DNA of 64,000 bases from a candidate division FCPU426 bacterium (GCA_963719085.1 CAVRAL010000001.1:1088001-1152000); one strand, 5' to 3'; shown: positions 25,739-52,162, counted from the stretch's first letter. The notes: generated from the sequence alone by a model not told the origin. Made by a program: numbers and translations.

Positions 25739-28630
25739 TCACAGCCTTATTCCCTCGTTTTCAAACGGCCGCGTCCGCCATTTTTTTTGTTTGGGAAGCC
25801 GCAGCCTGAAACAAGTTCCCTGGCCCACTTCGGAAGTCACCGTGATGTCACCCTTTTGCAGCTGCATGAAATTTTTCGCGATGAAAAGCCCCAACCCGGC
25901 CCCGGCGCGGGCCGCTTCTTTGCCCAAAACCCGGCTGCGGGTGAAAAGCCGTCCCAAGGTCTCCGTGTCCATCCCGATCCCGGTATCGCTGACCTCGAGC
26001 CAGCCCTCCTCTTCCCGGTCCTTGATTTCAAGCGTGATGGATCCTTTATCGGTGCATTTCAGGGCGTTGTTGATCAGGTTACGGACCGTCTCCACCGTCT
26101 TATCCTTATCCGCCAAAACCGTGAGCGCCCCGTCCATTCCCTTGAGCTTCAATTCCAGTCCCTTTTCCCTCGTCACCTCTTCGTAATCGCGGATGGACAG
26201 CTCTACCACTTGCCGCAGGTCGATGGGCTGCAGGTCCACCGAAATCACCCCCCGCTCGATTTTGGAGACGCTCAACAGGTCCGAGATCAGCCGGTAATTA
26301 TCCGTCCCAATGCTGCGCATATCCGAAAGGTACTCCCGTTGCTTTACGGTCAGTTCGCCCGCCAAGCCTTCCAGCATGTTCTCGATATACCCGTTGATCT
26401 CCGCCACCGGTGTTTTCAATTGATGCGACACCACGGAGATGAGCTCATTTTTCATCTCGGCGATTTGCTTGATCTCATTGATGTTTTCCACCACGGACAA
26501 ACGGTAGAGGGGCTTTCCCTCGGTGTCTAACACGGTCGAGGCGGTCTCCTTGCACCAAACGCTTTTCCCATCCCGGGTCAGGTAGCGTTTCTCAATCTGG
26601 TAGCTGGGGATGAGTCCATCGAACAATTTATTGGCCATTTCCCGGTCGACCTTCACGTCCTCGGCTTCCGAATGCCCGTAAAAGGGCTGGTGGATCAATT
26701 CTTTTTTCCGGTAGCCCAACATCTGGCAAAAAGCCTGGTTCACGTTGATCCATTCCCGGTCGCGGTTGGTCAGGGTCATGCCGATGGGCCCTTCCTCGAA
26801 AAGATTCCGGAACATTTCTTCCCGTTCCTGGAGGATGTTTTCCGCCTGACGCCGGTCCGAAATATCCCGCAGGATGCGGGTATGGAAAACGCCCCCTTTG
26901 GTTTCCCAGGACGAGGACGAGATTTCCAGCGGAAACTCGCCCAGATCTTTTCGCCGCCCCACCAATTCCATCCGGGAGGCTTCCAAAGGACGGCCCCAGT
27001 CATCCCGGTAAAGCCGGTTGAGCCGCTCGGGCAAAAGCACCACAAAGGGCTTCCCCAGGATTTCCTCCGGGCGATAGCCAAAAATCTTTTCCGCGCTGTG
27101 GTTGAAGTACCGAATATCCCCGTGGGCGTCGCATAACACGATTCCTTCGGTGGCGGTTTCGGTCACAGCCTTGAATTTTTCCACGTTGTCGGCCAGTTCC
27201 TTTTCCGCCCTTTGCCGCTCGCCGATATCCACCAGGGCCGCCACGGCGAACTTCACTTTTCCGTTCACGTCCAAAATAGGCGAGCCCCACATTTGAAGCG
27301 CGGTTTCATTTTCCGGGAGCCGCACGATCAAATCCTCAACGTTAGATTTCTCGCCCCGCAAAGCCCTCAAGAGCGGCATCCGTTCCGCGGGATAAGCCGC
27401 TCCCCCCTGGGCTTCCTGGAAGCGGTAAGCCTTCGAAAGGGTCTCGGGGGAAACCTCCCGCAAAACCCCCTGGCCCAGGATTTGTTTGGCTGTTTGGTTC
27501 GCGTAATAAGGTTTTCCCATGGCATCCAAGACAAAAATCCCGACGGGCACTACTTCCAGAAACTGAAACAATCGGTGCTCATTGTCCATCAGGGTACGGA
27601 TAAAAAATTTCCGGTCGCTGATGTCCCGGGCGATGAGCGTGAAATAACCGCCGTCACGGTTTTCCCGGGTTGCCAAATTGATTTCCACCGGTATTTTCAC
27701 CCCATCCTTGCGGAGCATCTCGGCTTCCAGGAATTTCTCACCCTCCGCCGGGTCATCCTTGAAGAAAAAACCGTCGAGCGCCGCCGCGCCCACCCGCTCC
27801 AAAAACCCCGGTGAAATTAAAAAATAAATGTTTTGGCCCAGGAGCTCCTCCCGGGAATATCCGAACATCGCCTCGGCCGCGGGGTTTACGGCGGTCAGGA
27901 CCCCATCCCGGCCAAAGGTGAGGAATGGGTCATTGGACGTCTCGGCCAAAGTCTTGAATTTTTGCTCGCTGGAGACCAGCCGGTTATGGGCGATCCGGCG
28001 CTGGCGGATTTGACGCAGCGTGAAATAAGCCGCCAACAGGCACACCAGGCCTAAGACCGCCCCCCCGACCAAAATCACATCCAGGTTGCGCCGGCTTCCA
28101 ATCGCCTCTTCGGACCTGTGGATTTTCAAGGACCAGGCTTCCAGGCGGCTGAGGTCTTGAATGAGACCCTGAATTTCGCCGTTCGTTTTTTTGAACGCCG
28201 AACCCTGCACATCCCCCACCGCCAGTTCCCATTTCCCCGCCTGGGCCCAGCGGAGGCCCCGCTCGACGCCGGAAATTTGGGCGGCCACCAAATTATCCAA
28301 CAGGTCCAAACTGGTCACCGGCAGGGGATCTTCCTCAACCGACTCCCGTAAATTCCGGGTGTCCTGATCCACGCGGCTCATTTCCCGGCTCAAGGGGCCC
28401 AAAATTTTGGCGTCCCGGGTCAACAGATACCGGGTGTAATCCACCTCAATTTGCTTCAAGTCCAATTGGATTTTTTGGAATCCCTGAATCACGCGAAACG
28501 CGTGATCCGCCCATTCGGCGCCGTTCTCCAGCTGGCGGATGCCGCTGTAGCCCGAGACAAAGATCAGCGCCGCCCCTAAAAGGACGCCGGCCGCCCCAAT
28601 CTTCAGCCACTTCCTGAAAGGGGATCTCAT
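25739..28630 (-). CDS. Membrane sensor histidine kinase: CHASE3-like, 4 PAS, HisKA, HATPase
   Basis: Two TMs around a WADH...YLLT periplasmic domain, four PAS/PAC units, H-box SHQLKTP, N-box NLINNALK, DTGIG and GAGLGL. Confidence 0.92.
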   Translation of the reverse strand: MRSPFRKWLKIGAAGVLLGAALIFVSGYSGIRQLENGAEWADHAFRVIQGFQKIQLDLKQIEVDYTRYLLTRDAKILGPLSREMSRVDQDTRNLRESVEEDPLPVTSLDLLDNLVAAQISGVERGLRWAQAGKWELAVGDVQGSAFKKTNGEIQGLIQDLSRLEAWSLKIHRSEEAIGSRRNLDVILVGGAVLGLVCLLAAYFTLRQIRQRRIAHNRLVSSEQKFKTLAETSNDPFLTFGRDGVLTAVNPAAEAMFGYSREELLGQNIYFLISPGFLERVGAAALDGFFFKDDPAEGEKFLEAEMLRKDGVKIPVEINLATRENRDGGYFTLIARDISDRKFFIRTLMDNEHRLFQFLEVVPVGIFVLDAMGKPYYANQTAKQILGQGVLREVSPETLSKAYRFQEAQGGAAYPAERMPLLRALRGEKSNVEDLIVRLPENETALQMWGSPILDVNGKVKFAVAALVDIGERQRAEKELADNVEKFKAVTETATEGIVLCDAHGDIRYFNHSAEKIFGYRPEEILGKPFVVLLPERLNRLYRDDWGRPLEASRMELVGRRKDLGEFPLEISSSSWETKGGVFHTRILRDISDRRQAENILQEREEMFRNLFEEGPIGMTLTNRDREWINVNQAFCQMLGYRKKELIHQPFYGHSEAEDVKVDREMANKLFDGLIPSYQIEKRYLTRDGKSVWCKETASTVLDTEGKPLYRLSVVENINEIKQIAEMKNELISVVSHQLKTPVAEINGYIENMLEGLAGELTVKQREYLSDMRSIGTDNYRLISDLLSVSKIERGVISVDLQPIDLRQVVELSIRDYEEVTREKGLELKLKGMDGALTVLADKDKTVETVRNLINNALKCTDKGSITLEIKDREEEGWLEVSDTGIGMDTETLGRLFTRSRVLGKEAARAGAGLGLFIAKNFMQLQKGDITVTSEVGQGTCFRLRLPKQKKWRTRPFENEGIRL

Positions 28631-28673
28631 GAGGCCGTTTTCCCGCCCAAATGAATGATTGAAACTTTCACGC

Positions 28674-29126
28674 TCAGTCCACCTTCAGCAAGGTCAGCTG
28701 TAAGGGCTGGCCCTGACTTTGGAAATGAAACAAGCCGAGGATGTCGCCGGCCGGGAATCGCGGTTCCCGGTCCGGCTCGGAAACGGCGGGCATGGAAAGA
28801 AAATGGTATTTGGTCATCATGCCTTTTAAATTCCCCCCCAGGATATTCACGATTTCTTTCAATCCGTCCCGGATTTGGTCCGGGACGACTTCCTCAATCG
28901 GGCACTGAAACATGGCGGCGGCGGCTTTTCGCGCCAGAATATCCGGGCACCTTAGGATCACCGTGATGTTCTGGCTGCCGATCACCCGGACCCAGGCCGT
29001 ATAGACGCCCGCGAGCGCCTCTTCCCCGGCCGAAACGGCGGGCGCGATTTCCATCTCCAACATCGACCCCCAAATGTCGCTCACCAGCTTGGGGACGCTG
29101 TCCATCCGGATTTCGGTCGTTTCCAT
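28674..29126 (-). CDS. cheX: CheX-family chemotaxis phosphatase
   Basis: DGLKEIVNILGGNLK (ExxN motif), SMP, ~150 aa, located in the che operon. ATG 29126. Confidence 0.85.
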   Translation of the reverse strand: METTEIRMDSVPKLVSDIWGSMLEMEIAPAVSAGEEALAGVYTAWVRVIGSQNITVILRCPDILARKAAAAMFQCPIEEVVPDQIRDGLKEIVNILGGNLKGMMTKYHFLSMPAVSEPDREPRFPAGDILGLFHFQSQGQPLQLTLLKVD

Positions 29127-29128
29127 GC

Positions 29129-29962
29129 TCAACCTCTTTCACTTTTCAACTTATAACCGGTGATGGTTTTACCAAATGTCTCGCCCTGGAAACCGCTGTC
29201 CAGAAACAAGGTGCTCTCCGAGGAGCCCAGAAAAAGGGTCCCCTCCGGCCGCAATAACCGCCGCAATTCCAAAAAAATCTTTTCCTTCATCTCATCGTCG
29301 AAATAAATCAACACGTTCCTCAACAACAATAAATCAACCGGACCCGCTTCCAGCCTCAGGTCCTTCAAATTGCTTTCTTTGAACTGGATGAGCGCCCGCA
29401 CTTCATCGTTCACTTGCCAATCACCCTCGAGGCGGTGGAAATATTTCGCCAAATATTCCGCGGACAACCCCCGGCGGATCTCGACGGGGTTATAACGGCC
29501 CTGCCGGGCCCGTTCCAAAATGGCCCGGGAAAAATCACTCCCCGTCAGCCTCAAATCCCAGTTCAAAAGAAACGGGAATTTTTCCTTAATCAATAGGGCC
29601 AAACTATAGATTTCTTGGCCGCTGGAACAGCCCATCGACCACAGGACCAAGCGCTTTTCCTTTTCGCGCGCCGCCACCAAGTCCGGAATCACCTTTTGTT
29701 CCAGCAGCTCAAACAAAGCCGGATCCCTGAAAAAATAGGTCTCGGCCGGGATCAAGGCTTCCACGACCTTGCGGGCCAAGGGCCCCCGGGAGTCCTGCGG
29801 CAGTTGGGCCATCAACTGGGCCAGGCTCTCAAATCCCCAGCCTTCCAAGGCCGGTTCCAGGGAAGAGGCGATCAAATATTCCTTGTCCTTGTCCAACAGG
29901 ACCCCGCAATGTTCCTGAACCAGGCGCCGCAAAAAATCAAAATAAAGGGTCGTGGCGGTCAT
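29129..29962 (-). CDS. cheR: Chemotaxis methyltransferase CheR
   Basis: ETYFFRD, WSMGCSSGQEIYS, RNVLIYFD and LFLGSSE motifs. Confidence 0.95.
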   Translation of the reverse strand: MTATTLYFDFLRRLVQEHCGVLLDKDKEYLIASSLEPALEGWGFESLAQLMAQLPQDSRGPLARKVVEALIPAETYFFRDPALFELLEQKVIPDLVAAREKEKRLVLWSMGCSSGQEIYSLALLIKEKFPFLLNWDLRLTGSDFSRAILERARQGRYNPVEIRRGLSAEYLAKYFHRLEGDWQVNDEVRALIQFKESNLKDLRLEAGPVDLLLLRNVLIYFDDEMKEKIFLELRRLLRPEGTLFLGSSESTLFLDSGFQGETFGKTITGYKLKSERG

Positions 29963-31095
29963 AGCGACATCCCCTCTTTTCGCGGCCGCGAAAAAGGCGA
30001 AGCGGAAAAATCCGCGCGTTCATACCGCGCCCGTCGAATAATTTCGGGTCCCATCTCCTGCAGGGGCAGCACCTTTTCGGCCAGTCCCGCCCGGACCACT
30101 TCCCCGGGCATCCCCCAGACCACGCTGCTGGCCTCATCCTGGGCCAGGACCTGACCGCCCCTTTCCACGATCTGTTCGGCCCCCTTGAGCCCGTCTTGTC
30201 CCATGCCGGTTAATAAAACCGCCAGCACATTGGGCCCATAAACCGCGGCCGCCGATTGGAACAACACGTCCACGCTGGGCCGGCAGGAATTAAAGAAAGG
30301 CCCCTGAAAAGTCCAAGCCTGGGGCCCCTCGCCCGAAAGCCGAACCGCCAGGTGATAATCCCCCGGCGCCAAGCGGACCATGCCGGGCCTTAAGACCTCG
30401 GACACCATGGCTTCCCGGACTTCTAAAACCGATTTATCCGTTAATCGCTCAGCCAGGGTCCCCGTGAAAACCGGCGGCATATGCTGGACGATCAAGACCG
30501 GCACGGGAAAATCCGCCGGAAGGGACGGAAGCAGGGCGGCCAGGGCGCTGGGGCCCCCGGTGGACACCCCCACCACCACCAAGTCCACCCGCTGGGGTTT
30601 AATTTTGGGGTTCTTCACGCGGGCCCGCGCGGGCCCGGGAAACAACGGCAAGGTTTCCATCCCCGGCTCAAGACTTGGCGGCTTGGGCATTTTTTCCGCC
30701 AAGGCCCGGATTTTGGGGATCAAATCCTCTTTCACCCGCTGGATGGATTCCTCCAGGAATCCCGAGGAGGGTTTTTCCAAATAGTCCTGCGCCCCCAAAA
30801 GCAAAGCGTCGATGGTGGCCTCCGCGCCTTTACGGGTAAAACTGCTGAACATGATGACCGGCAAATCGGGATACAGCCTCCGCGTCTGGCGCAGGGTTTC
30901 CAGGCCGTTCAGGTTCGGCATCTCCACGTCCAGGATCAACAAGTCCGGATTGCATTGGGGGATTTTAGCCAAGGCGATCCCGCCGTCGGGAGCGGTCCCG
31001 ATCACTTCCATATCCGGCTCGTCCGAAAGGACGTGGGCCAGCATTCTTCGAATGACCACCGAATCGTCCGCCACGAGAATTTTGATTCGTCCCAT
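29959..31095 (-). CDS. cheB: Chemotaxis methylesterase CheB (REC plus esterase)
   Basis: REC motifs (ADDS, LDVEMP) and esterase motifs GVSTGGP, VQHMP, RPSVDVLF, LTGMGQDG, SVVWGMP. ATG 31095. Confidence 0.96.
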   Translation of the reverse strand: MGRIKILVADDSVVIRRMLAHVLSDEPDMEVIGTAPDGGIALAKIPQCNPDLLILDVEMPNLNGLETLRQTRRLYPDLPVIMFSSFTRKGAEATIDALLLGAQDYLEKPSSGFLEESIQRVKEDLIPKIRALAEKMPKPPSLEPGMETLPLFPGPARARVKNPKIKPQRVDLVVVGVSTGGPSALAALLPSLPADFPVPVLIVQHMPPVFTGTLAERLTDKSVLEVREAMVSEVLRPGMVRLAPGDYHLAVRLSGEGPQAWTFQGPFFNSCRPSVDVLFQSAAAVYGPNVLAVLLTGMGQDGLKGAEQIVERGGQVLAQDEASSVVWGMPGEVVRAGLAEKVLPLQEMGPEIIRRARYERADFSASPFSRPRKEGMSL

Positions 31096-31097
31096 GT

Positions 31098-31469
31098 TCA
31101 AATCCTTGGAAAACCTAAAAGCCCCAATTTTTCAGCCAATGATTCTTTGTTAAACGGCTTGGCGATATACTCATCCGCCCCGGCCTCTTCCATCCGCGAC
31201 ACACCCTCCGCCTGGGTCTCGCTGCTGACCACCACCAGTTTGACCTGGTCATACTCGGGTTTGGATCGCACCGACTTCACGAAATCGTATCCGTTCATTT
31301 CCGGCATGTTCCAATCCACCAAGACCAGCTCGGGCCTGGGCTCCTGGCCCAAAGCGTCCAATCCAGTCAAGCCGTTGTCGGCCTCCGAAACCCCGAACCC
31401 CATCTCCAAGAGCAGTTTTTTCAGGATCATGCGCATGGCCCTGGAATCGTCAATGATAAGCGCTTGCAT
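31098..31469 (-). CDS. cheY: Single-domain response regulator CheY
   Basis: IDDS, VDWNMP and YIAKPF motifs, 123 aa, GGAGG RBS. Confidence 0.93.
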   Translation of the reverse strand: MQALIIDDSRAMRMILKKLLLEMGFGVSEADNGLTGLDALGQEPRPELVLVDWNMPEMNGYDFVKSVRSKPEYDQVKLVVVSSETQAEGVSRMEEAGADEYIAKPFNKESLAEKLGLLGFPRI

Positions 31470-31490
31470 AAAACCTCCTTCTCTTAACCT

Positions 31491-33020
31491 CTAATACTTG
31501 AACTGCCCTAACAGCTTTTGAAGCTCCCCCGCCGTGCGGACCAAGTCTTTGGCCGCCGCGCGCGCGTCATTGGCCCCCTTGGAAGTGCCGCCCGTGGCCA
31601 GGGCCACGCCCGAAATGCTGGCCGCGATCTCCGAGCTTCCCTTGGCCGCCTGCGTGATATTGCGCCCAATCTCGTTGGTGGTGGCGGTTTGTTCCTCCAC
31701 CGCGCTGGCGATGGTGTTCGAAATATCGTTCACCTGGTTGATGATCTCGGTGATTTTTCCGATGGCGGTCACCGAGGCCTGGGTATTGCCTTGGATGGCC
31801 TCGATTTTGCGGCTGATATCCTCGGTGGCCCTCGCCGTTTCCCGGGCCAATTCCTTGATCTCGTTGGCCACCACGGCGAAACCCCGGCCCGCGTCCCCGG
31901 CCCGCGCGGCCTCAATGGTGGCGTTCAACGCCAAAAGATTGGTTTGCTCGGCGATCGAGGTGATGACCTTGATCACCTGGCCGATCTCGGCCCCGCTCTT
32001 GCCCAATTGGGTCACGTGCTGGTTGGTATCCCGGGCTGTCTTCACGGCGGTTGTGGCGATTTGCGCCGCTTGGTTGGCGGACACCGCGATTTCTTTGATG
32101 CTGTGGGCCATGCCATCGGTGGCCGTCGCCACCATTTGAAGGTTCTGGCTGACTTGCGCGGCGCCCACCGAAACCACATTGGCCTGGGTGGAAGTTTCCT
32201 GGGTGCTGGCGCTCATCAGCACGGAAGTCTCCGAAAGTTGCTCGGAGGCGCTCGTCAGGCTTTGGATATTGCCGCCGATCCCCCGCACCATCCCCTGCAG
32301 CCTTTCGGTAAAAGTGTTGAACGCCCCCGCCAATTCGGCCAACTCATCCCGGCCCGCCACTTCCAGCCGTTTGGTCAAGTCCCCCTCGCCGCGGGCGATA
32401 TCCTTCAATCCGTCCAAAACCAGGCGCAAGGGCTGGGTGACATGCCGCTGTAAGCGGGCCGCCACGAGGAAGGAAACCAAAAAAGACAAAAGACACACCA
32501 CCACCGTCAGCAGGGTGTAGGCCTGGAGCCGGGTCTGCATTTCTTTGAGGTCCGAAACCAGGTAAAGCGTCCCCACCCGGTCGTTTCCGGAAAAAATATC
32601 GTGGGTCAAGGCCACTTGGCCGTTGGAAAAATCAACGCTGTCGGCGTCGGCCCGGTCATTTTCCCGGCCCGGCGGCCGGGGGTTGAAAGAAACCGGATCA
32701 GCCGCCTGGGAGCGGTAGCTGGCGAAAGGCTCGCCAGCCGCGCCATAAAGGGCGGCCACCTGGATATGGGGGTTGGCCTTCAAGTTGTCGACCAGCTCTT
32801 GGGCGGTTTTGGGGTCATTAAAGCTCAGCGAGGCCGTGCAGGCATCCCCGATAATTTGGCCCAGGTTGGTCACGTTTTGGGCCATCACCTTGGGAAAAGA
32901 AATCCTCTCGTTCAGGATGAAAAGGCCGCAGGCCAAGATCAGCGAAATCGAGCTGGCGATGGACGCGATGGCCGTCACCTTGTGCCTCAAGGGTATATTT
33001 TTGAAGTCGATAAAAGGCAT
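31491..33020 (-). CDS. Methyl-accepting chemoreceptor: TM, CHASE8/YfiN-like periplasmic sensor, TM, HAMP, MCP signal domain
   Basis: Own GGAGAG RBS and ATG at 33020. Periplasmic [13 protein letters not shown]...[25 protein letters not shown] ([15 protein letters not shown]), hairpin tip [27 protein letters not shown]. Confidence 0.9.
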
Positions 33021-33022
33021 GG

Positions 33023-33596
33023 TCACTCTCCGGTATAAATTTTGGAAACCTGCAGCAGACTGCGCGCTCAAGGTAAGGCCCGCCTTCGTCGCGGGTCCCG
33101 GGTTGATCCCCAGCGTGATGCGGTCCCCTTCCTGGTCAAACAAAATCATGCCGCCCTTGGCCGGGAACCTCTCAATTTCGGACACCGTGAGGACCGGCGC
33201 GCCCTGGAGCGCGGTAAAAATCTCGGGCAGGCGGTCTTTTTCGGAATAGCAGATGAAAAGAATTTGGCATTTTCGGATCGAGGCGGTTTGGGAGTCCTCA
33301 AACCCGTCAAACCGCTTGATCGTGATGGAGCGGCCATCCACCATTTTCCCGTCGACCGCCTGTTCCAAAAGCGTTCCAAAGGGATCGTTTCCCAAAATGC
33401 CGATGGTGAATATCATCGACTTCCCGCCGAACGCCTTGTCGGGCCATTGGACGAACTTGGCGAAGTTGTAGAGATAAGCCGCCTTCACCGTGTACTCATT
33501 GACGTCTTGGGCGGCCGCCCGCGAGGCCGCTCCGGCGGACAAAAGCCAAACCGCGGCGGCCAACAGCCTTTTTATTTTTTTGAGGGGATTTTCCAT
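33023..33596 (-). CDS. yfiR: YfiR/HmsC (DUF4154) family periplasmic protein; as sequenced it carries a +1 frameshift at 33059 and reads through into the MCP
   Basis: Signal peptide, [31 protein letters not shown] and GGMI motifs. Removing base 33059 gives the family-like end [15 protein letters not shown] at 33023. Confidence 0.85.
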
Positions 33597-33600
33597 GGGC

Positions 33601-35673
33601 TTAATACCGGACCGTGACTTGGCCGTAAACCGCCGGCACCGGGCTGGAACCGTTTAGGAAAGCCGAGGCTTCCTGGTGGGCGCCTTCCAAGTCCTGCCCC
33701 CATACCGAGATTTCCCAATGGTCGGCGGGCTTCCAGGTGGCGCCCAGGTCCCAGACATCATAAGGGGCCAGCACGCCCGTGAATTGTCCCGTCGGGTCGT
33801 TGATATAGGTCGCGTCCACCCAGTAAAAAGTGGTGTTGAATTGCCATTCGGAAGTCGCGTTCCAACTCAAGCGGCCATCCACGATGTTATGGGGAGGCGG
33901 GTCCCCGTTGAAAATATTGGAGATGGAGTTCGAGGTCGCGTCATAGCCGTTGTAAGTGTAAGCAAGGGCGCCTTTGAGATTATTCGTGATGTCCCACTTC
34001 ACGCTGAGTTCGGCCCCGTAAATCCCTCCCCCATCCACATTGTCCACCAACAGTTCCGCCCCGTAAAAACCGCCGTAGGGAGTCGGCGGATAGCTGGGCC
34101 CGCTATTGACGACAAAATCTTCCCCGATGGTCCGGTAATAGCGGTCATAAAAACCGGCCAAGTCCAAGGACAATTGGGGGGTCCAGCTGGTGCGGAAACC
34201 CAATTCATAAGCCACCACGTCTTCCACCTGCAAATTAGGGTTGCCCACAATGGCGGTGTAAAAAGTGGTGGGGCCCGGAGCCACCTGGCCGTTGAGAAAA
34301 TCGACGATGCCTTCCTCAGCCCGGCTGGGGACCCGCACCGTGCGGGATACGGCCGCCCAGACGCTGTTGGTTTTGTCCGGGGTCCAAAGCAGGCGCCCGG
34401 AGGGCTGCCACTCGTCGCCGGTGTAGGGGTTGTTTTCCAATTTGGCTCCGGCGGTCAGGAAAAAACGGTTCTGCTCCAAGGTCAGTTTGTCCTGCAAAAA
34501 ACCGCCATAGGTATTCAAAGACGCTTTTTCCGGAATGTACAAAGTCCCGCCCGGAAGCCCGTAATCGTCCGAAACGTTGCGGAACTCCAAGCCCCAGGTG
34601 ATCTCGTTCCAATCGTTGAGTTGGAAGCGGTGTTGGAACTCGGCGTCGACGGTGTTCAGCGCGGTCTGCCGGCCCGTTTCCGCCTGCATGTTGACCTGGT
34701 CGTAGTAAAGGTTCAATTGACTTTCCGAGCTGTCGGAAAAGGTATGGGTCCAATTGCCCAGGACATGGTCGTCCCGGTCCACCGTATCGGCGACTTCCTC
34801 AGGCGAAGTTTGGAGCGTGAATGGGTCGAAGGTGGTCCCGGGCAAGTAAAGGTTCGCCAATTGGTAATCCGCCTGGAGGGTGACCAGGTCCTTTTCCTCG
34901 TGCCAATCCAACCGCGTGCCCAACTGCTGGGCGGTCCAATTATCATCGCCATTTTTGTTCAAGCCGTCCGAATCGGAAAAGGGCCCTTGATTGAGCGTCT
35001 TGCCATAGACCCGGTAAAAAAGGTCATCCCCGATCTTGCCCCCGTAGCGGATGGCGCCCATGTTGCTGGCGCCGCTGCCGGTCAGGCTGGTGGCGTAGAA
35101 GCCCTGCGTGATCTTGGAATCCTTGGTGATGATGTTGATGATGCCGTTCACGGCGTTGGAGCCCCACAGGGTCCCCCCGGGGCCGCGGATCACCTCGATG
35201 CGGTCGATATCCTCCAGCGGAATGTCCAATTCATCCCAATTGACCCCGCCGAAGGTGCTTTGGTAAACGCTGCGGCCGTCGACCAGGACCAGCATCTTAT
35301 TGTTATAGAGGGAGTTGAATCCCCGGGCGGTGATGGACCATTGGCTGGCGTCCACCCGGGAAACCTGAAGGCCCGGCACCATGCGGAAAAGATCGGCCAG
35401 GTGCTGGGATCCGCTTTCGCGGATGTCCTCGGAGGTGATGACGTAAAGGGCCGAAGTCGCGTCCCGGAGGGACTCCGCTTTTTTGGCCGAGGAAGTCACT
35501 TGGACATCCAGCCCCGCCAGGTTTTCCAGGCTCATCTGGCTCACATCGACCGTCGGCTCGGGCGTGGCGGCCGCGTCCAATTGGGCCCGGGCGGCGACCG
35601 GCAAACTCAAAACCGCCGATAAACCCAGGACCGATAGCCACATTCCCCGCCGCGCCGCTGATTTTCCTGTCAT
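33601..35673 (-). CDS. TonB-dependent outer-membrane receptor
   Basis: Signal peptide, plug motifs ([53 protein letters not shown]), GNPNL, terminal aromatic residue (VTVRY). Confidence 0.93.
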
Positions 35674-35727
35674 TTCGTTTTTCCCTTGTCCTTAAAATTT
35701 GACCGCCACGGTTCACCCATCGGATAA

Positions 35728-35744
35728 AGCAACCCACGTGCCAA
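35728..35744 (-). promoter_or_regulatory. Sigma54 (-24/-12) promoter upstream of the TonB receptor
   Basis: Minus strand TTGGCACGTGGGTTGCT matches TGGCAC-N5-TTGC(A/T), 55 bp upstream of the start codon. Confidence 0.85.
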
Positions 35745-35794
35745 AACAAAGTCGCTCAAAAAAAGAAAAACAAAGAAACTCCCGCTCCCCAACA

Positions 35795-35827
35795 GCGTCA
35801 TTTCGACTCAGCGGGTATGGATGACCC
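35795..35827. promoter_or_regulatory. Putative enhancer (bEBP) binding site, copy 1
   Basis: GCGTCA-TTTCG-ACTC-AGC-GGGTA-TGGA-TGACCC. It starts 51 bp from the sigma54 element and matches the copy at 38516. Confidence 0.65.
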
Positions 35828-35845
35828 GGCCGGTCACCTGGAACT

Positions 35846-36283
35846 TCACTGCCAATTCCGCGTCCCCAATGTTTCCTCCACATCCAAAGCCAGCAATAGG
35901 CTGCGCTTGAGTTTGTAAGCTCCCCGGATCAGGCGTCGGGACTCCCCCGTCAGCGTCGCGGGAACCTGCTCAAAAGAGCCCGAGGGCGGCTCCAGCACAT
36001 CCCCGATCCCGTCCACCGGCAGTCCGATCCATTCCTCGCGGTCTTTCAATATGACGCAAAAGCCGGGAGAGGCCCCGCTGTCCCCTGTCAGCCCCAACCG
36101 CCCTTTCAAATCCAAAACCGTGACCACTTGGCCCCGCAGATTGACCAGCCCGGCGACCCAAGCCGGGGCCAAGGGGACCGGCGTCACGGAAAACCCGCGC
36201 AGCACTTCCTGGACCCGGCCGGTCTCAACGCCGAAAAGAAAATCCCCCACTTGGAAGGAGCAATAAGAAGTTTCAGGCGCCAA
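35846..36283 (-). CDS. cheW: Chemotaxis coupling protein CheW
   Basis: VQEVL, VTPVPLAP, GLVNLRGQVVTVLDL and VDGIGDV motifs. TTG start overlaps the cheA end. Confidence 0.94.
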   Translation of the reverse strand: MAPETSYCSFQVGDFLFGVETGRVQEVLRGFSVTPVPLAPAWVAGLVNLRGQVVTVLDLKGRLGLTGDSGASPGFCVILKDREEWIGLPVDGIGDVLEPPSGSFEQVPATLTGESRRLIRGAYKLKRSLLLALDVEETLGTRNWQ

Positions 36284-38396
36284 TGGGAACGTCCTTTCCG
36301 ATGCCCGCGGCCGCCAGCAAGGCCGGGACGTCCAATAACTCGGTGATCCGCTCTTTCAAGATCATGGAGCCCTTCACGAGCGCCCGGGCGGGCGGGCGCT
36401 GGACTTCCAAGGGAGCCTTCACGATGTCCAGCACCCGGTCCACCACCAATCCAACCTCTTCCCGCCCGTTGTCGTAGACCACGACTTGAATTTTTTCGAG
36501 GTCCCGGTCCGAGGCATTGCGGTTGATCTGCCGTCTTTCGGGAAGCATCCGGGAAACATAAACCAGCGGCAAAATTTTCCCGCCATATTGGATCACTTCC
36601 AGGCCGCCGGATTTTTCCACCGCGCCGGGCTGAAAAGTTTCCAGGCGCAAAACCTTTTCCAGCGACAGGGCCATCCGCCCGTCATCGGGCGTTTGAAACA
36701 GGATCGCCAGCTGGGTCTTATCCGTGAGGATTTCCGGCCCTATTTTTTTCGGCGTGAAGGCTTGGGATTCGGACTGCGCCGATAACACCCGGCAGCGTTT
36801 GGCCAATCCCGGCACGTCCATAATCAGCGCCACCTGGCCGTCCCCCAGGATGGTGCTGCCGGCGTAAAGCGGAATCGACTTAAAATGCCGTCCCAGGGGC
36901 TTCACCACCACTTCCTGGAAATCCGCCACCGAGTCCACCACCAGGCCCAAAAGCCTCTCCTCCACCCGCAAAACCACAATGTTGAAAGCTGAAAGCTCCT
37001 CGCTCCCGCCGGCTTTCAATTCTTGGCGCAGGAAAATCAGGGGCAAAAGTTTCCCCCGGAGCCGGTAAACCGGGGCCTCCGGCAGATACTCAATCCCCCG
37101 GTGGATGTAGCTGTCCTGGATGCGGATAATTTCTTCCACGTGGGCCCGGGGCAGGATGTAAGGACGGCCGTCGCAATGGGCCACCAGCGCCGGCAGGGTG
37201 GTCAAGGTCAGGGGTATTTTGAGTTTGAAGGAGGTTCCCTGGCCCGGCAGGCTTTGGACCTCGACTTTTCCGCCGATCTTTTCCAGGTTGGCCTTGACCA
37301 CATCCAATCCCACGCCGCGTCCGGAAATGGAGGTCAGTTTTTCCGCCGTTGAAAATCCCGGCCGGAAAATAAACTGGGCCAGGTTGTCGGGATCGATTTG
37401 TTCGGCTTGGTCGGCGGTGATCAACCCGTCCCGTAAGGCTTTTCGCTTAATCTTGTCCAAACCCAATCCCGCGCCATCGTCCTTAATCTCCAACTGCACG
37501 GCCCCCGCCTCATGAAACGCCTTCAAGCTGATCCGGCCTTCGGCGCTTTTCCCGGCCTTCAGCCTTTCATCCGGCGATTCCAGGCCGTGATCGATCGCGT
37601 TGCGCACCAAATGGGTCAGGGGGTCGCGGATCATTTCCAAGACGCCCCGGTCGATCTCGATGTCCTCCCCCTCCATTTCCAAAACCGCTTGCTTGCCGCA
37701 GGCCTTCGCCGTATCGCGCGCCAGCCGGGGAAAGCGCCCCCACAAATGGGAGAGGGGCTGCAACCGCGCCTTCAAGACGCCCTCTTGGAGTTTCAAGGTC
37801 AGCTGGTTGAGGGGCTGGAGCACGGCGTTGAAAGCGGGATCGGTCTGGGCGGCGGCGAATTGGAAAACCCGGTTGCGGGCCAGGACCATTTCCCCGGTCA
37901 GGTTCATCAATTGATCCAGCAGTCCAATGGATACCCGAAGCCCGTTGTCTTCTTTCCGTTCGGATGACACCGGCGCCGAAGACCGTTCGCCATCGTCTCC
38001 CGGCTCAGCCGGGGCCTCACCGGCGGCCTGAAGTCTTTTAAGAAAGGCGCTGTCATCGGCCTTTTCCTCACCCGCGCCGGATTCAATCGGCCGCAAACCC
38101 AAGCGCAGCAAGTCGGTGAGTTCCAACAAAAGGGTGGCCAATGCCGGCGTCATTCGGATTTTCCCGTCCCGCATTTGGGACAAGACGCCCTCGCCGCCAT
38201 GGGCCAGTTTTTCGAGGCGGGAGAAGCCAAGAAATCCCGCGGTCCCTTTCAGCGTATGCAGCACCCGAAAAAGCGCCGATAACTGGTTGGCGTCGGCGGG
38301 ATTTTTCTCATAGTTGATCAAGCCGTCTTCCAAACGGTCCAAACCCTCGCGGCTTTCCTGTAGAAATTCTTGGATAATTTCAGCGGCGTCTTCCAC
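36273..38396 (-). CDS. cheA: Chemotaxis kinase CheA (HPT, dimerisation, HATPase, two CheW-like domains, no P2)
   Basis: FRVLHTLKG, LVRNAIDHGLE, DDGAG, GFSTAE..ISGRGVGLDVVK and IPLTL motifs, then two CheW-like domains. Confidence 0.96.
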   Translation of the reverse strand: MEDAAEIIQEFLQESREGLDRLEDGLINYEKNPADANQLSALFRVLHTLKGTAGFLGFSRLEKLAHGGEGVLSQMRDGKIRMTPALATLLLELTDLLRLGLRPIESGAGEEKADDSAFLKRLQAAGEAPAEPGDDGERSSAPVSSERKEDNGLRVSIGLLDQLMNLTGEMVLARNRVFQFAAAQTDPAFNAVLQPLNQLTLKLQEGVLKARLQPLSHLWGRFPRLARDTAKACGKQAVLEMEGEDIEIDRGVLEMIRDPLTHLVRNAIDHGLESPDERLKAGKSAEGRISLKAFHEAGAVQLEIKDDGAGLGLDKIKRKALRDGLITADQAEQIDPDNLAQFIFRPGFSTAEKLTSISGRGVGLDVVKANLEKIGGKVEVQSLPGQGTSFKLKIPLTLTTLPALVAHCDGRPYILPRAHVEEIIRIQDSYIHRGIEYLPEAPVYRLRGKLLPLIFLRQELKAGGSEELSAFNIVVLRVEERLLGLVVDSVADFQEVVVKPLGRHFKSIPLYAGSTILGDGQVALIMDVPGLAKRCRVLSAQSESQAFTPKKIGPEILTDKTQLAILFQTPDDGRMALSLEKVLRLETFQPGAVEKSGGLEVIQYGGKILPLVYVSRMLPERRQINRNASDRDLEKIQVVVYDNGREEVGLVVDRVLDIVKAPLEVQRPPARALVKGSMILKERITELLDVPALLAAAGIGKDVPIGA

Positions 38397-38448
38397 AGGT
38401 TCCTCGGCTTTCGAAGGGTCAAGGCATCAGCTCGATATGACAAGGAAG

Positions 38449-38465
38449 AGCAACGAACATGCCAA
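38449..38465 (-). promoter_or_regulatory. Sigma54 (-24/-12) promoter upstream of cheA
   Basis: Minus strand TTGGCATGTTCGTTGCT, 53 bp upstream of the cheA start. Confidence 0.82.
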
Positions 38466-38515
38466 TTTTAACCTTGAATAAGCCAAAGTTTGTTCAATAA
38501 CATTTAATAATTCGA

Positions 38516-38547
38516 GGGTCATTTTTACACTTGGGTAAATTTGACCC
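38516..38547. promoter_or_regulatory. Putative enhancer (bEBP) binding site, copy 2
   Basis: GGGTCA-TTTTT-ACAC-TT-GGGTA-AATT-TGACCC imperfect palindrome, 51 bp from the sigma54 element across an AT-rich spacer. Confidence 0.65.
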
Positions 38548-38709
38548 AATTATGTCCGGACGATTTTAAGCAAACGCGGGTTTTCCGGGGTTTAGGAAAA
38601 AGTGCCTATTTAACGTCGTAATTTGCGCGGGGTAGTTTTGACTGAACGGGGATGATCTCAGTGGAAATCAAAAACATTTTTTTTGGAAACCCTAAGACAA
38701 AGGTCGTTT

Positions 38710-39054
38710 TTATCTTGTCGAATGGGCGCCATCCAAGTGGGTTTGGATTTCCCCGAGGAACTTTGCCTTGGCCCGGGAACCGATCCACTGCCGAATGACC
38801 TGGCCCTTTTTGAAAAGTAAAAAAGTCGGCATGCTCATTACCCGGTAGGCGGCGGACGTTTCCTGGTTAACGTCCACATCCAACTTCACGATCTTGAGCT
38901 TTCCCGCCATCTCGACCGCCATTTCCTCAAGAAGAGGCGTCATCACCCGGCAAGGCGGACACCATTCAGCCCAAAAATCCACCAAGACCGGCAAGTCCGA
39001 ATCCAAAACATCTTTTTTAAAATCAGCGTCGCTGGTCACCGCAAGATTTCCCAT
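38710..39054 (-). CDS. trxA: Thioredoxin
   Basis: PVLVDFWAEWCPPC, KLDVD and SMPT motifs, GGAGG RBS. Confidence 0.93.
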   Translation of the reverse strand: MGNLAVTSDADFKKDVLDSDLPVLVDFWAEWCPPCRVMTPLLEEMAVEMAGKLKIVKLDVDVNQETSAAYRVMSMPTFLLFKKGQVIRQWIGSRAKAKFLGEIQTHLDGAHSTR

Positions 39055-43282: not shown

Positions 43283-44182
43283 ATGACGGAAAGCGACTGG
43301 CTGGCCGAGCGGTTCCAAGAAAAGCGCGCCCATCTAAGGGCCGTGGCCTATCGGATATTGGGTTCCAACGGCGAGGCGGAAGACGCCGTCCAAGAAGCCT
43401 GGCTGCGCCTCTCCCGGTCGGAAGCGGACCGCATTGAGAACCTCGGCGGCTGGCTGACAACGGTGGTGGCCCGGGTCTGCCTGGATATGCTTCGTTCCCG
43501 CAAGGTCCGCAAGGAAGAACCCATCCAAGAAAATATTTTGGAAAAGCCTACAAGCACCCCCGCCAGCGACCCGGCGCAAGAAGCCCAATTAGCCGACTCG
43601 GTCGGCTCCGCTTTGCTTTTGATCCTAAGAACCCTGACACCCGCCGAACGGGTGGCCTTTGTGCTTCACGACCTATTCGATCTTCCCTTCGAGGAGATCG
43701 CCTCGACTTTAGGCCGGTCAACGGAAGCGACCCGGCAATTGGCCAGCCGCGCCCGCCGCCGCGTCCGGGGCGGCAGTGAAAACCGGGAAGACGAAGCGAA
43801 AAAGCGGACGATTGTCGCGGCCTTCCTCACCGCCTCCCGAGAGGGAAATTTTGACGCCCTGTTGCGCTTGCTGGACCCCGGCATCCTGCTTTACGCGGAC
43901 GATGTGGCCGTCAAAATGGCGGAAGTCAACAAGTCCAAAGGCGCGCCGCCCTTCCAGAGCGAGATGGCCGGAGCCAAAAACATCGCCGAAACATTCAAGG
44001 GCCGGGCCGTGGCCGCCCAATTGGCCCTCATCAATGGCTCAGTGGGAACAACCTGGATTGCCGGCGGCAAACCCCGGGTGGCGTTCTTATTTACGATCGA
44101 GAATGGGAAGATTCAGGAAATCAATGTGGTGATGGACCCGGAGGATTTGAAAGAAATGGAAGTGGAGCCGCTCTCGGCTTAA
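43283..44182 (+). CDS. ECF sigma factor, ECF41/SigJ-like, with a SnoaL-like C-terminal extension
   Basis: VAYRILGS..EAEDAVQEAWLR, WLTTVVARVCLD, LTPAERVAFVLHDLF and RQLASRARR motifs, plus a C-terminal extension (AFL.A...G.FDALL.LLDP ... ING). Confidence 0.93.
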   Translation: MTESDWLAERFQEKRAHLRAVAYRILGSNGEAEDAVQEAWLRLSRSEADRIENLGGWLTTVVARVCLDMLRSRKVRKEEPIQENILEKPTSTPASDPAQEAQLADSVGSALLLILRTLTPAERVAFVLHDLFDLPFEEIASTLGRSTEATRQLASRARRRVRGGSENREDEAKKRTIVAAFLTASREGNFDALLRLLDPGILLYADDVAVKMAEVNKSKGAPPFQSEMAGAKNIAETFKGRAVAAQLALINGSVGTTWIAGGKPRVAFLFTIENGKIQEINVVMDPEDLKEMEVEPLSA

Positions 44183-45281: not shown

Positions 45282-45491
45282 GGCTGTTCCTTTTATTTAA
45301 AGGTGATTTCCGAATCCTTTGAAAACTAACCGAGTCACCGAGAAATTGCAATGCGTCCGCCCGGGAAGCCGGCTGGAGCGGACGGCCGTGAAATTCAGAC
45401 CGGGATTAGGTCAGGAAGATTCTGTCCAATGTCAAAATAAATGCTAAAATCACGCCATCTAACGGTTTTCCCCTATTTTGACGGAGCTACC

Positions 45492-46586
45492 ATGCCAAAG
45501 GCCTATCCCGAAAAGATCAAAAAGCTCCTCAAACGCCAGCGGCTCCTCAACCATGAAATCCTCATGTATCGACGGGTCATGGAAGGCATGCGGGAAGGTT
45601 TAGTCTTTGAGAACCTGCTTAAACTCATCATTGATTCGATGCGAAAAGGGATGGGCTTCAAGCGGGCAGGCATTTTCCTGGTGGACCCGGACGGAAAACA
45701 TTTTCAGTTGGCTTTAGGGATAGGCGCCAACGGCAAATATGAGCACAATAAAGACCGGTTTCCCCTCGATACCAGCCCCGGAAAGGTCCCCCTGGCCGAC
45801 GTCATCAACGGCCGTGTGCGTTACTTTCTCTCCAACAATATCCCCAGCCGCATACCCCAGCGCTATCAATATAGGGTGGAAGTCATCAACAACGCCGTGG
45901 TGCCCATCCAGGTGGGAAAAGAAAAGACTATCGGCGCCCTAGCCGTGGACAATCTTCATCTCAACCGCCCCATCACCCAATCGGACGTTTCCAGCCTGAT
46001 GAACTACGCCACCCAGTTGGGATTGGCCATCGAATCCTTGAGGATCCACGAAAAGGTGATGAACCTGTCTTTGACCGATCCCTTGACCGAACTTTATAAC
46101 CGCCGGCATTTCGACAAGGCCCTGGCCCAGGAAATCAAGCGGTGCCAAAGGTACAAACGCTCCTTCAGCTTATTGCTGATCGACATCGACCATTTCAAGC
46201 GCATCAACGATAATTACGGCCATGACGCCGGGGACCGGGTGATCCGCCAGGTGGGAAACCTGCTGAGGAACGCCCTTCGCAATCCGGACGTGGTCGGGCG
46301 GGTCGGCGGCGAGGAATTCGCGGTCATCCTTGCTGAAACCCCGCCCCAAAACATCACCCTGGTCGTCAATAAACTTCTGAGGGAAATGAGGCGGACCGTA
46401 CCTGAGGTTCCGGCCATGGCTGAAAAAAATGAACGGGTGACCTTCAGCGTCGGGCTGGCCACTTTTTTAAGCGGGGACGTCACCGCGCAAGCGATTATGA
46501 AATTAGCCGATCAGAGCATGTACCAGGCCAAACGAAACGGCCGGAACCGGGCCGGATCGCTTAGGCTCATCCGGAAAAAACGCTGA
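45492..46586 (+). CDS. GAF-GGDEF diguanylate cyclase
   Basis: GAF domain, then DPLTELYNRR, DIDHFKRINDNYGH..GD, RxxD I-site (RNPD) and a GGEEF active site. ATG 45492 after GGAG. Confidence 0.93.
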   Translation: MPKAYPEKIKKLLKRQRLLNHEILMYRRVMEGMREGLVFENLLKLIIDSMRKGMGFKRAGIFLVDPDGKHFQLALGIGANGKYEHNKDRFPLDTSPGKVPLADVINGRVRYFLSNNIPSRIPQRYQYRVEVINNAVVPIQVGKEKTIGALAVDNLHLNRPITQSDVSSLMNYATQLGLAIESLRIHEKVMNLSLTDPLTELYNRRHFDKALAQEIKRCQRYKRSFSLLLIDIDHFKRINDNYGHDAGDRVIRQVGNLLRNALRNPDVVGRVGGEEFAVILAETPPQNITLVVNKLLREMRRTVPEVPAMAEKNERVTFSVGLATFLSGDVTAQAIMKLADQSMYQAKRNGRNRAGSLRLIRKKR

Positions 46587-50165: not shown

Positions 50166-50181
50166 CCTTTCCTGTTTAAAA

Positions 50182-50940
50182 CTACCGGTGAATGAAAAAA
50201 TAAAGGGTTAAGAGAAACCCGACAACCGAAATAAAGTTCCGCAAAATCGACGGATTTACTTTTTCGAAAAAAAAACGCCCAAAAATCCGCCGCTCACGGC
50301 GCCCGCGATCATGACCATCGTCACCGGCCAATTCAGCGAATAATTAAAAAAGAAAATGCTGACGGCCACACCGTTCATGAATCCGGCCAAAAGCGTTTTA
50401 ACGGCATTCATCGATTGGATATTTTTCATTCCAACCATGGAAAAAACGCCAAGATGAGAATGCCGTTGCATCCCCCGAAATAACCTCCATAGATCGCCGA
50501 AAGAAAAAGGACCGCCACCAAAAGAACGGGGGTCGATTTCCGGTTTTCCATCTTGCGGATCACCAGGGACCCAAAGGTAAAAGCAGGGTCGCGAACAAAA
50601 GGAGATAGGGCAGCAAAAAAGTGAAATAGCTTTGGGGCGCCTTGACTAAAAACTCAGCGCCAAGAACCGCCCCCGCCAGAGCCGCCGACAGCCAATAAAG
50701 AATTTGGGAGCCGTGGAATTCGGAAAATTCCTTCCGGTAGGCCCAAGCGGAGAAAAACTAACCAAAGAAAAGCCCCACCGTGCAGGTAATATTCGCCTCA
50801 ACCGGCCGGATGCCTAAAAAGACAAGGATCGGGAAGGTGATCAGGATTCCCCCTCCCGCGATGGAGTTCAGGGCCCCTGCCGCGAAGGCCGAGAAAAACA
50901 GGAACAAATCGATTCGAAAAGGGGAAAAGTCCACCGGCAC
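50182..50940 (-). pseudogene. Disrupted sulfite exporter TauE/SafE (TSUP) family gene
   Basis: AGALNSIAGGG, SAWAYRKE, AIYGGYFGG and NAVK motifs spread over several frames. In-frame TAG at 50758-50760 and about three 1-bp frameshifts. Confidence 0.8.
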
Positions 50941-51222
50941 TAAGGGCAGAAAAAAGCTAGCTGGGCCACCTCAAAATTGCAATGCGTTTGATTAGCACCC
51001 AGCTGAACGGCCTTAGCCTTGGGGGCAGAGTGTCGAATTCTCGTCGTCCATGAAATCCTCACCATTCGCTCGATAAAGGCGAAAACCTAGTGTCCCCTCC
51101 GTTACGCTACGGGGAGAGCCATTCATCCAACAAAAAAGGCCATCCAGATGAACCGAATGACCTTTAATGACATGAATGGGCCCCCTCATAAGGCGTCGGG
51201 GACATCCACTTGCTCTATAAAC

Positions 51223-51265
51223 AAAAAGCCGGGCAACACGCTAATTAGCATATTGCTCGGTTTTT
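51223..51265. terminator. Long imperfect hairpin immediately 3' of the tRNA fragment
   Basis: AAAAAGCCGGGCAACACGCTA-AT-TAGCATATTGCTCGGTTTTT. Confidence 0.6.
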
Positions 51266-51273
51266 GATGCAAG

Positions 51274-51324
51274 TGATGCCCGAGGCCGAACTTGAACCAA
51301 CATGCGGTTGACCTCGATGGATTT
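51274..51324 (-). pseudogene. Degenerate 3' half of a tRNA-Leu-like gene (att-site remnant)
   Basis: Minus strand AAATCCATCGAGGTCAACCGCATGTTGGTTCAAGTTCGGCCTCGGGCATCA: anticodon-stem 3' side, long variable arm, T-loop GTTCAAGT, acceptor strand and a CCA-like end. The 5' half is absent. Confidence 0.7.
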
Positions 51325-51723
51325 CTCTAAATTTTGTCGCAAGAATAAATTCAGAGAAAAGAACTCCCAACCGTTTACATCAACAGTCCCTTTCCAAAAC
51401 CTTTCCACCCCTAGCAAACCAACTTGTTCGGGACTTAGGGTCGTAAATCAATGGTCTGCTTTCAGTTTTATTCTCCGCCGAGGAGGTAAACCCGGCCTGG
51501 CAGTCAAGCTGACAAAGGTCGGTTCCGGTATTTTAAAGGCGTAGATTTGGATGATTTTCATGGAGAGGCCCCTGCTTGTGTATACAAGTACACACAGAAC
51601 TTAAAAGGAGATTAATAAATGAGGATATTATCCAGATAAGATTTTCCCGGGGATAGGCTTAAAAATTGATTTCAAAAACAGCTCAGCTTATTTTCAAATA
51701 ATTGGCTCGAAGGCTAGAAAAAA

Positions 51724-52116: not shown

Positions 52117-52162
52117 TTATTTAAGTTCATCATTCTACACGACTTCATAGCCATTAAATTTA

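Follow-up and report, generated by a model that had tools for sequence, protein, structure and literature searches.

The 64,000-nucleotide (nt) stretch of DNA analyzed here (the window), which derives from a candidate division FCPU426 bacterium (GCA_963719085.1 CAVRAL010000001.1:1088001-1152000), carries on its minus strand a cluster of nine genes in the order cheA-cheW-TBDR-yfiR-MCP-cheY-cheB-cheR-cheX, where TBDR stands for a TonB-dependent receptor and MCP for a methyl-accepting chemotaxis protein with a CHASE8 sensor domain. The combination of receptor, YfiR-like protein and CHASE8 sensor is a real, widespread and uncharacterised input module, which in the window is built into a cluster of chemotaxis (che) genes. 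The gene order from cheA to cheX had been proposed in a first-pass annotation, and it was borne out by the calls of open reading frames (ORFs), with Pfam support for each of the nine genes. The description of the cluster as a complete che operon stands as well, since Pfam recognises CheA, CheW, MCP, CheY, CheB and CheR all in the same cluster.

The MCP is composed of a first transmembrane segment, a CHASE8 domain, a second transmembrane segment, a HAMP domain plus the MCP signalling domain, and the Pfam scores are 51 bits for CHASE8 (cut-off 27) and 48 bits for HAMP. The N-terminal domain scores 161.9 bits over residues 10-240 with the NCBIfam model HK_near_YfiR_like (NF053592), which is below the cut-off of 194. 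The segment ASLSFND of the window MCP aligns with AAVVFAD of Escherichia coli DgcN/YfiN, F67 and D69 being invariant in 15 sequences; according to Malone 2012 (PMC3375315), the AAVVF motif of YfiN is the predicted YfiR-binding site. The domain score above the cut-off and the aligned DgcN motif thus agree with the first-pass annotation, which had called this sensor CHASE8- or YfiN-like. Its view that a chemoreceptor occupies the place of the diguanylate cyclase agrees with the Pfam result, by which the sensor carries MCPsignal and not GGDEF. Eleven homologues of the MCP (497-509 amino acids (aa), 59-94% identity) are unfused proteins, and the sequence GGAGAG stands shortly upstream of the ATG of the window MCP gene.

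The occurrence of the module was surveyed with a YfiR alignment as the query against a genome set in which each species is represented once, and 548 relatives were confirmed. The best 80 were kept and represent 79 loci (L numbers below), with 6,613 ORFs against which the window proteins were compared by phmmer. These loci belong to at least 13 named phyla (26 to Acidobacteriota, 24 to Verrucomicrobiota, 7 to Pseudomonadota and others to ten further phyla, with 2 loci unassigned). The source genome of the window lies outside this sample, because the closest YfiR among the 79 loci is only 55% identical to that of the window. For the RpoD encoded in the window, identity to the nearest named group is 49%. 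A sensor gene adjoins yfiR in 78 of the 79 loci, 76 times on the same strand and directly after it, and twice (L064 and L070) in convergent orientation and directly downstream; in L049, the contig ends 271 nt after yfiR. Among the 76 same-strand sensors scanned, 73 contain Pfam CHASE8. Two loci are cut by contig ends (L044 and L068), which leaves 77 that can be assessed for the receptor, and 71 of them have a TBDR gene contiguous with the module. Under a strict rule, 63 of the 79 loci have the TBDR directly upstream, and the TBDRs of L019, L032 and L076 failed this rule solely through over-long ORF calls. The TBDR directly follows the sensor in L017, L020 and L071; it is divergent in L027, 707 nt upstream in L013 and 4.8 kb away in L037. 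No TBDR was found nearby in five of the 77 assessable loci (L005, L008, L016, L040 and L055). The sample of 79 loci contains 89 TBDR-like ORFs; 88 of these are contiguous with either yfiR or the sensor, the rest of the flanking sequence (885,528 bp) contains a single one, and the linkage of the receptor exceeds chance. The conserved triplet put forward by the first-pass annotation therefore survives a neighbourhood survey of 79 loci from many phyla.

Junction lengths within these loci are approximate, as the first start codon of each ORF was taken as its start. The TBDR and yfiR genes overlap by exactly 13 nt at 22 of 53 junctions, and yfiR and the sensor gene (71 junctions) are separated by 1 nt in 20 cases and overlap by 4 nt in 12. 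The 13-nt overlap spans several phyla (L006, L007, L010, L012, L014 and 17 further loci), and it may result from a start codon built on a conserved Trp codon near the C-terminus of the receptor. Receptor and YfiR copy numbers do not match one to one. In twelve loci, 2-4 TBDR-like ORFs were counted, and part of these are fragments of a single split gene; tandem receptor genes are present in L026 (three) and L032 (four). Two yfiR copies were observed in nine loci (L028, L032, L033, L040, L041, L057, L062, L069 and L072); those of L032 are not in tandem and flank its four-receptor array.

The outputs of the sensors vary. The 76 same-strand sensors comprise 64 histidine kinases (often of the hybrid type), 5 MCPs (L004, L009, L032, L036 and L051) and 7 proteins with no recognisable output; inclusion of L064 and L070 brings the loci with a histidine kinase output to 66. 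The seven unrecognised outputs are due to contig ends or split ORFs, and they include L013, in which the ORF that follows has a match to the MCP signalling domain. GGDEF was found by Pfam on none of the 76 sensors. The MCP of L051 scores 225 bits with the sensor domain model NF053592. Genes for chemotaxis stand beside the triplet in four of the six MCP-type loci (L004, L009, L036 and L051), in orders that differ from the order in the window; of the other two, L032 is cut and L013 has none that could be seen. A tree of 90 sensor domains, obtained by a quick search with supports that are indicative, implies at least three changes between kinase and MCP output, so that the same input module has been combined with differing outputs on several occasions. 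The clade of the window sensor consists of nine MCPs and adjoins kinases. A REC-GGDEF or REC-GGDEF-EAL regulator is encoded directly after the hybrid kinase in all four loci checked (L008, L021, L028 and L060), and at least five more loci have ORFs at this position that match both CheY and DgcN. Cyclic di-GMP (c-di-GMP) often stays the end point of the module. The window itself encodes a GAF-GGDEF cyclase (45441-46586, plus strand) and a PilZ-domain protein (1621-2208, minus strand), which shows that c-di-GMP signalling is present in this genome.

The receptor of the window consists of a signal peptide, about 28 residues with the TonB-box region, which was placed by alignment position only, a plug and a barrel. 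It has a conserved N-terminal motif, SLE.L...V.VTS..K (alignment A2). Among solved structures, its closest relative is CirA (2hdf), with E 1e-28 over residues 59-649; the stretch aligned with CirA is preceded by about 28 mature residues only. The best NCBIfam match is the TOL_0244 family (NF053590) with 484.5 bits, compared to a cut-off of 645. The receptors linked to yfiR in the survey fall into two classes that are alike only in the plug region, and all of those checked have a Plug and a barrel but no STN domain. An N-terminal motif, LSLEEL...V.TS, is nevertheless common to both divergent classes in all linked receptors inspected. SLEEL...VTS was considered as a YfiR-specific docking site and stays a lead, the comparison having covered yfiR-linked receptors only. 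YfiB, the outer-membrane partner in Pseudomonas, has no counterpart here: no OmpA-family match was obtained among the 39 ORFs of the window, and E. coli YfiB finds none of the 6,613 ORFs of the 79 loci. In accordance with the first-pass annotation, a TBDR is located in the outer-membrane slot of YfiB, and no YfiB-like protein is encoded in any locus or window ORF.

The yfiR product, a periplasmic DUF4154 protein, carries a signal peptide. The profile of its family matches the YfiR structures of Pseudomonas aeruginosa (E 4e-6), and a model of the orthologue P0096 superimposes on two of these, 4yn7 and 4yn9, with TM scores of 0.71-0.79. The next fold matches of this model are Rhodothermus marinus entries deposited under the name 'substrate-binding protein' (TM 0.55-0.63), as well as binding-protein lobes. 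However, the gene is not intact as sequenced. It has no in-frame stop codon, and the ORF finder called no separate yfiR but a 701-aa ORF (31491-33596) that comprises DUF4154 and the whole MCP. The reading frame is kept from the ATG at 33596 to Gln179 (33062-33060); one extra base is present near 33059, and shifted-frame translation places the last 11 expected codons and a TGA (33025-33023) in the next frame. Due to the extra base, the stop is lost and yfiR runs in frame with the MCP gene. The shifted-frame TGA ends 2 nt before the MCP ATG at 33020. This frameshift was overlooked in the first-pass annotation, and a free intact yfiR is absent from the sequence as given. The spacing of 2-4 nt that it had reported for the triplet is consequently right for the 4 nt between the TBDR stop and the yfiR ATG, while the 2 nt between yfiR and MCP apply only when the extra base is ignored.

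Twelve YfiR homologues share the C-terminal tail that is out of frame in the window (alignment A1, 46-83% identical; up to 88% by BLASTP). The closest four relatives (P0096-P0099, 83-88% identical) have a normal tail in one frame, and P0096 (190 aa) probably shares a 3,892-nt contig with P0001, an unfused MCP of 509 aa that is 94% identical to the window MCP. In the P0096 model (pLDDT 89.7, pTM 0.81), the segment that is lost here, residues 180-190, is confidently predicted as a helix followed by a short strand. By profile-to-structure alignment they correspond to L181, R185 and Q187 of P. aeruginosa YfiR, which belong to the surface that binds YfiB and YfiN. With the model NF053591 (YfiR_like_TOL0243), the 178 in-frame residues without the shifted tail score 124.8 bits against a cut-off of 125, and the intact, 88%-identical P0096 scores 134.4. 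Nothing was found that would support a programmed frameshift: the tails of P0096-P0099 are in one frame, the closest MCPs are unfused and the site is not a homopolymer run. We also considered natural fusions of YfiR to its sensor as evidence of interaction. The sole protein with both DUF4154 and CHASE8, P0012, looks frame-shifted at both ends and was set aside as an artefact, and in an atlas search with P0096 all 30 of 30 clusters contained DUF4154 only.

Whether the extra base near 33059 is a real mutation or an assembly error is close to an even question, and it is independent of how the module works. A genuinely broken yfiR, that is, a pseudogene fused to the MCP gene in a pathway that has lost control by YfiR or is decaying, falls just short of being the better bet. 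The absence of an in-frame stop and the loss of structured residues that match partner-contacting positions of P. aeruginosa YfiR argue for it, as does the rarity of indel errors in the window, where one uninterrupted ORF spans 3,619 aa and another one 3,084 aa or more. A contig of 1.44 Mb is listed for the window's RpoD, which is also in favor of a broken copy, and by topology reasoning the read-through product would place CHASE8 in the cytoplasm. The alternative of a single-base assembly error is supported by the integrity of the other eight genes of the che cluster, by the normal tails of P0096-P0099 and the probable location of P0096 on one contig with an unfused MCP, and by the frame errors visible in the contig that encodes P0012, the second protein that looks fused. 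Should the frameshift be genuine, there would be no normal free YfiR, and MCP translated from its own start would be permanently released. Receptor genes beside yfiR are split into 2-3 ORFs in L036 (7579-9919), L064 (7731-9900), L072 (7806-9854) and L041 (7226-8810). These splits may be assembly errors or decay, and they bear on how the frameshift of the window itself is to be judged.

As a working model, to which we give somewhat less than even confidence as a whole, we propose that a signal passes from the TBDR to YfiR and from there to the MCP, within an input module that is coupled to a histidine kinase in most lineages and is here joined to an MCP and a complete che operon. By homology with YfiR and YfiN, YfiR would bind the periplasmic CHASE8 domain and hold the chemoreceptor in one signalling state. 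A ligand-occupied and TonB-engaged TBDR would expose its periplasmic N-terminal segment and capture YfiR, playing the role that the lipoprotein YfiB has in Pseudomonas. The freed MCP would then alter the activity of CheA, and CheY, CheB, CheR and CheX would handle the signal in the manner usual for Che pathways. What has been observed is the domain content, the operon and the conservation of the synteny. We infer the hold of YfiR on CHASE8 and the capture of YfiR by the TBDR, and likewise the notion, already voiced in the first-pass annotation, that a signal could be relayed while its ligand stays out of the periplasm. The first of these steps is favored because the YfiR-binding motif is kept in the sensor and the P0096 model matches P. 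aeruginosa YfiR. The second is favored because YfiB, in the solved complex, binds YfiR via an extended N-terminal loop and both TBDR classes share an N-terminal motif, and because several receptors can serve one YfiR. A shared receptor motif that is read by a single YfiR explains the multi-receptor loci more easily than the import of several ligands would.

Several points weigh against this relay. By Pfam, the window TBDR has no match to the STN signalling domain; judged from its sequence, it appears to retain all hallmarks of a transporter; and its N-terminal motif appears to include the TonB box, for which conservation would be expected in any case. The likeness of the YfiR fold to substrate-binding proteins and the ligands of P. 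aeruginosa YfiR favor the sensing of a ligand in the periplasm. The five of 77 loci with no receptor nearby indicate that the YfiR-sensor core can work alone, and the frameshift in yfiR may mean that the module is inactive in this genome. These observations lead to the closest competitor, in which the TBDR is an ordinary transporter that imports a large or scarce compound, and YfiR, acting as a co-receptor, binds this compound in the periplasm and thereby shifts its hold on CHASE8. The observations suit this reading no less than a relay in which the ligand stays outside. Such an arrangement would be comparable to chemoreceptors that depend on binding proteins and to SusC with hybrid two-component sensors. 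We regard it as possible rather than likely, and slightly prefer the relay. Import followed by sensing is consistent with the intact plug, barrel and TonB-box region of a receptor that is CirA-like over its full length, and with the resemblance of the YfiR model to the R. marinus entries mentioned above. It also agrees with the binding of vitamin B6 or L-Trp by P. aeruginosa YfiR at its partner-binding site and with the approximately sevenfold induction of TOL_0244 of Thalassolituus oleivorans on the n-C28 alkane, which was read as the behavior of an uptake receptor. However, in loci with 2-4 divergent receptors and one YfiR, a single YfiR would have to recognise several ligands, and this clade of YfiR has no known ligand. 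On general reasoning, active accumulation in the periplasm would also be a poor read-out of a gradient for an MCP.

Two-component systems often adjoin the transporters that they control, and the linkage could accordingly reflect co-regulation only: YfiR and CHASE8 would sense a cue of their own, for instance the envelope or redox state, and the receptor would provide no input, being regulated cargo or present for another reason. The YfiR-sensor core indeed occurs with no outer-membrane partner, both in the same five of 77 loci and, according to Malone 2012 (PMC3375315), in Salmonella and Dickeya. Even so, we consider co-regulation alone improbable. The adjacency of receptor gene and yfiR, often with the 13-nt overlap, spans at least 13 phyla and outlives at least three swaps between kinase and MCP output, and the MCP-type loci lack a transcription factor that could regulate the receptor gene as cargo. 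A redox cue in particular is disfavored because the redox-sensitive disulfides of P. aeruginosa YfiR (Cys71-Cys110 and Cys145-Cys152) are not conserved: by profile-to-structure alignment, cysteines 71, 145 and 152 are absent here and only the position of Cys110 holds a Cys.

The coordinates of the cluster are listed in the Table. The last 11 nt of cheA are shared with cheW, and the 172-nt gap between cheW and the TBDR gene is not tight. The best NCBIfam matches of CheA are CheA models, with scores below their cut-offs. The gene for a CHASE3-PAS histidine kinase, which follows cheX, is possibly co-transcribed with the che cluster and at most a putative member of the system. The core of this kinase is 63% identical over 230 residues to the core of the CHASE8 kinase P0022, the sensor of which is the sister of the window MCP sensor in the sensor-domain tree. 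This likeness hints at domain exchange within the lineage. A scan of positions 28400-38800 for promoter and terminator consensus sequences was uninformative, with 3 promoter-like sites compared to 3.3 expected and 19 terminator-like sites compared to 18.2 expected from shuffled sequence. No flagellar or pilus genes were found within the window.

Table. Genes of the che cluster and the adjoining kinase gene in the window.
Feature	Coordinates	Strand	Product and Pfam matches
cheA	36273..38396	-	707 aa; Hpt, H-kinase_dim, HATPase_c, CheW (CheW in 2 stretches)
cheW	35846..36283	-	145 aa; CheW 98 bits
TonB-dependent receptor (TBDR)	33601..35673	-	690 aa; Plug 90.5 bits, barrel 114.5 bits
yfiR, frameshifted	33023..33596	-	DUF4154 129 bits (cut-off 24.9)
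MCP	31491..33020	-	509 aa from own ATG; CHASE8, HAMP, MCPsignal
cheY	31098..31469	-	123 aa, single receiver; Response_reg 88 bits
cheB	29959..31101	-	receiver and methylesterase; CheB_methylest 210 bits, Response_reg
cheR methyltransferase	29129..29962	-	CheR 172.6 bits, CheR_N
cheX-like phosphatase	28674..29132	-	CheX 38.1 bits (cut-off 27)
CHASE3-PAS histidine kinase	25739..28630	-	Pfam; 43 nt downstream of cheX

Some features elsewhere in the window are worth recording. An ORF of 3,619 aa (10700-21559, minus strand) has no Pfam match at E <= 1e-6; its product is repetitive, contains 25.6% glycine, starts with a signal-like segment and ends in '...NLGF', and its GC content is 0.63-0.675, compared to about 0.53-0.60 around it. 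By these sequence traits, the product resembles an outer-membrane or autotransporter-type protein. A protein with an ice-binding-like domain (9038-9919, minus strand; Pfam 184 bits) is encoded beside a c-type cytochrome gene and this giant glycine-rich ORF. From 50000 to 64000 the GC content falls to 0.42-0.46, and this part of the window looks like an acquired island. It includes a truncated integrase-core fragment (rve, 53974-54303, plus strand) and, after it, an ORF (54746-64000, minus strand) of at least 3,084 aa that continues beyond the edge of the window and has Malectin, Kelch and NHL repeats.

What fails to cross the outer membrane stays out of reach of periplasmic chemoreceptors and sensor kinases. 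If the relay is true, sensors linked to TBDRs would account for the ability of Gram-negative bacteria to perceive compounds that are hydrophobic, polymeric or as large as siderophores, and YfiR, so far a Pseudomonas biofilm regulator, would become an intermediary of general use in the periplasm. Although common, the module has been annotated by name only, and cultured carriers make the relay directly testable; T. oleivorans is a cultured carrier of a receptor and YfiR-like pair. On a broader and more speculative view, which we think is rather doubtful at present, the trio would represent another type of TonB-dependent signalling across the envelope, the second one known and widespread. A soluble YfiR-like protein would shuttle between receptor and sensor, and the trio would feed two-component, c-di-GMP and chemotaxis pathways and not an ECF (extracytoplasmic function) sigma factor. 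The YfiB system of gammaproteobacteria would be a special case derived from it, and the MCP form, by reading receptor occupancy at the surface, would permit chemotaxis toward molecules that are too large or too hydrophobic for porins.

TonB-dependent transducers are known from cell-surface signalling of the FecA-FecR-FecI and FpvA types. These differ from the present module in having an STN domain and a FecR-like anti-sigma factor, neither of which is present here, and in acting on an ECF sigma factor, while the module has a soluble YfiR-like partner and two-component or Che outputs. No gene of the FecR-like type turned up; an ECF-type sigma factor gene is located at 43283-44182 on the other strand, 4.9 kb away.

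The closest characterised relative is the YfiBNR system of P. aeruginosa and E. coli. Both systems have a DUF4154 gene with a signal peptide directly before a sensor of the type TM-CHASE8-TM-HAMP, where TM is a transmembrane segment; they share the predicted YfiR-binding motif and the fold of YfiR, and in both an outer-membrane protein is encoded in the operon. However, the sensor has an MCP signalling output here and GGDEF there, the outer-membrane protein is a TBDR of the 22-strand type and not an OmpA/Pal-like lipoprotein such as YfiB, and its gene comes first here. The modularity of this system has been noted before. Malone 2012 (PMC3375315) describes the 'YfiR-YfiN[PAS] core' as widespread and modular, mostly lacking YfiB outside the beta- and gammaproteobacteria. 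The outputs of distant yfiNR pairs given there in silico are kinase, HPT, GGDEF-EAL and MCP, with the statement that in Polaromonas 'YfiN has MCP output domain'. The same study mentions a system in which YfiR is present twice, comparable to the nine such loci of the present survey, and distant yfiNR pairs are attributed to Opitutus, Koribacter, Geobacter and Rhodothermus. The term 'TonB' is absent from the main text and from 8 supplementary files, which do not describe a receptor partner or a che-operon setting.

The trio itself has an entry in NCBIfam release 20, where three consecutive models are devoted to a TOL_0244 family TonB-dependent receptor (NF053590), a TOL_0243 family YfiR-like periplasmic protein (NF053591) and a sensor histidine kinase associated with YfiR-like proteins (NF053592). 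These are the best matches of the three window proteins (for the sensor, the best N-terminal match), all below the cut-offs, though narrowly for YfiR, of which the in-frame part was scored. They differ in having a kinase in place of the MCP output, and they are annotation models with no tested mechanism. Two surveyed loci with this gene order, L007 and L079, reach the cut-offs of all three models (NF053590 scores of 778 and 769, respectively); together with the consecutive numbering, this indicates that curators had already recognised the trio. In T. oleivorans, TOL_0243 is the YfiR-like neighbor of TOL_0244. The study that reported the induction of TOL_0244 compares this receptor to Alcanivorax dieselolei OmpS (40.3% similarity), which according to papers citing the 2014 work of Wang and Shao (PMC9788540, PMC5174103 and PMC6304351) is said to trigger the expression of chemotaxis genes. 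An effect on chemotaxis gene expression differs from the arrangement considered here. Our literature searches retrieved no paper on the mechanism of the trio and none that joins DUF4154 with TonB. The novelty claimed by the first-pass annotation therefore has to be narrowed: a YfiR-linked sensor with MCP output (Malone 2012) and a trio of TBDR, YfiR and kinase (NCBIfam) were already on record, and the claim holds in so far as no published mechanism was found. What is new in the window is the MCP output in a che-operon setting, for a known module that has no characterised mechanism.

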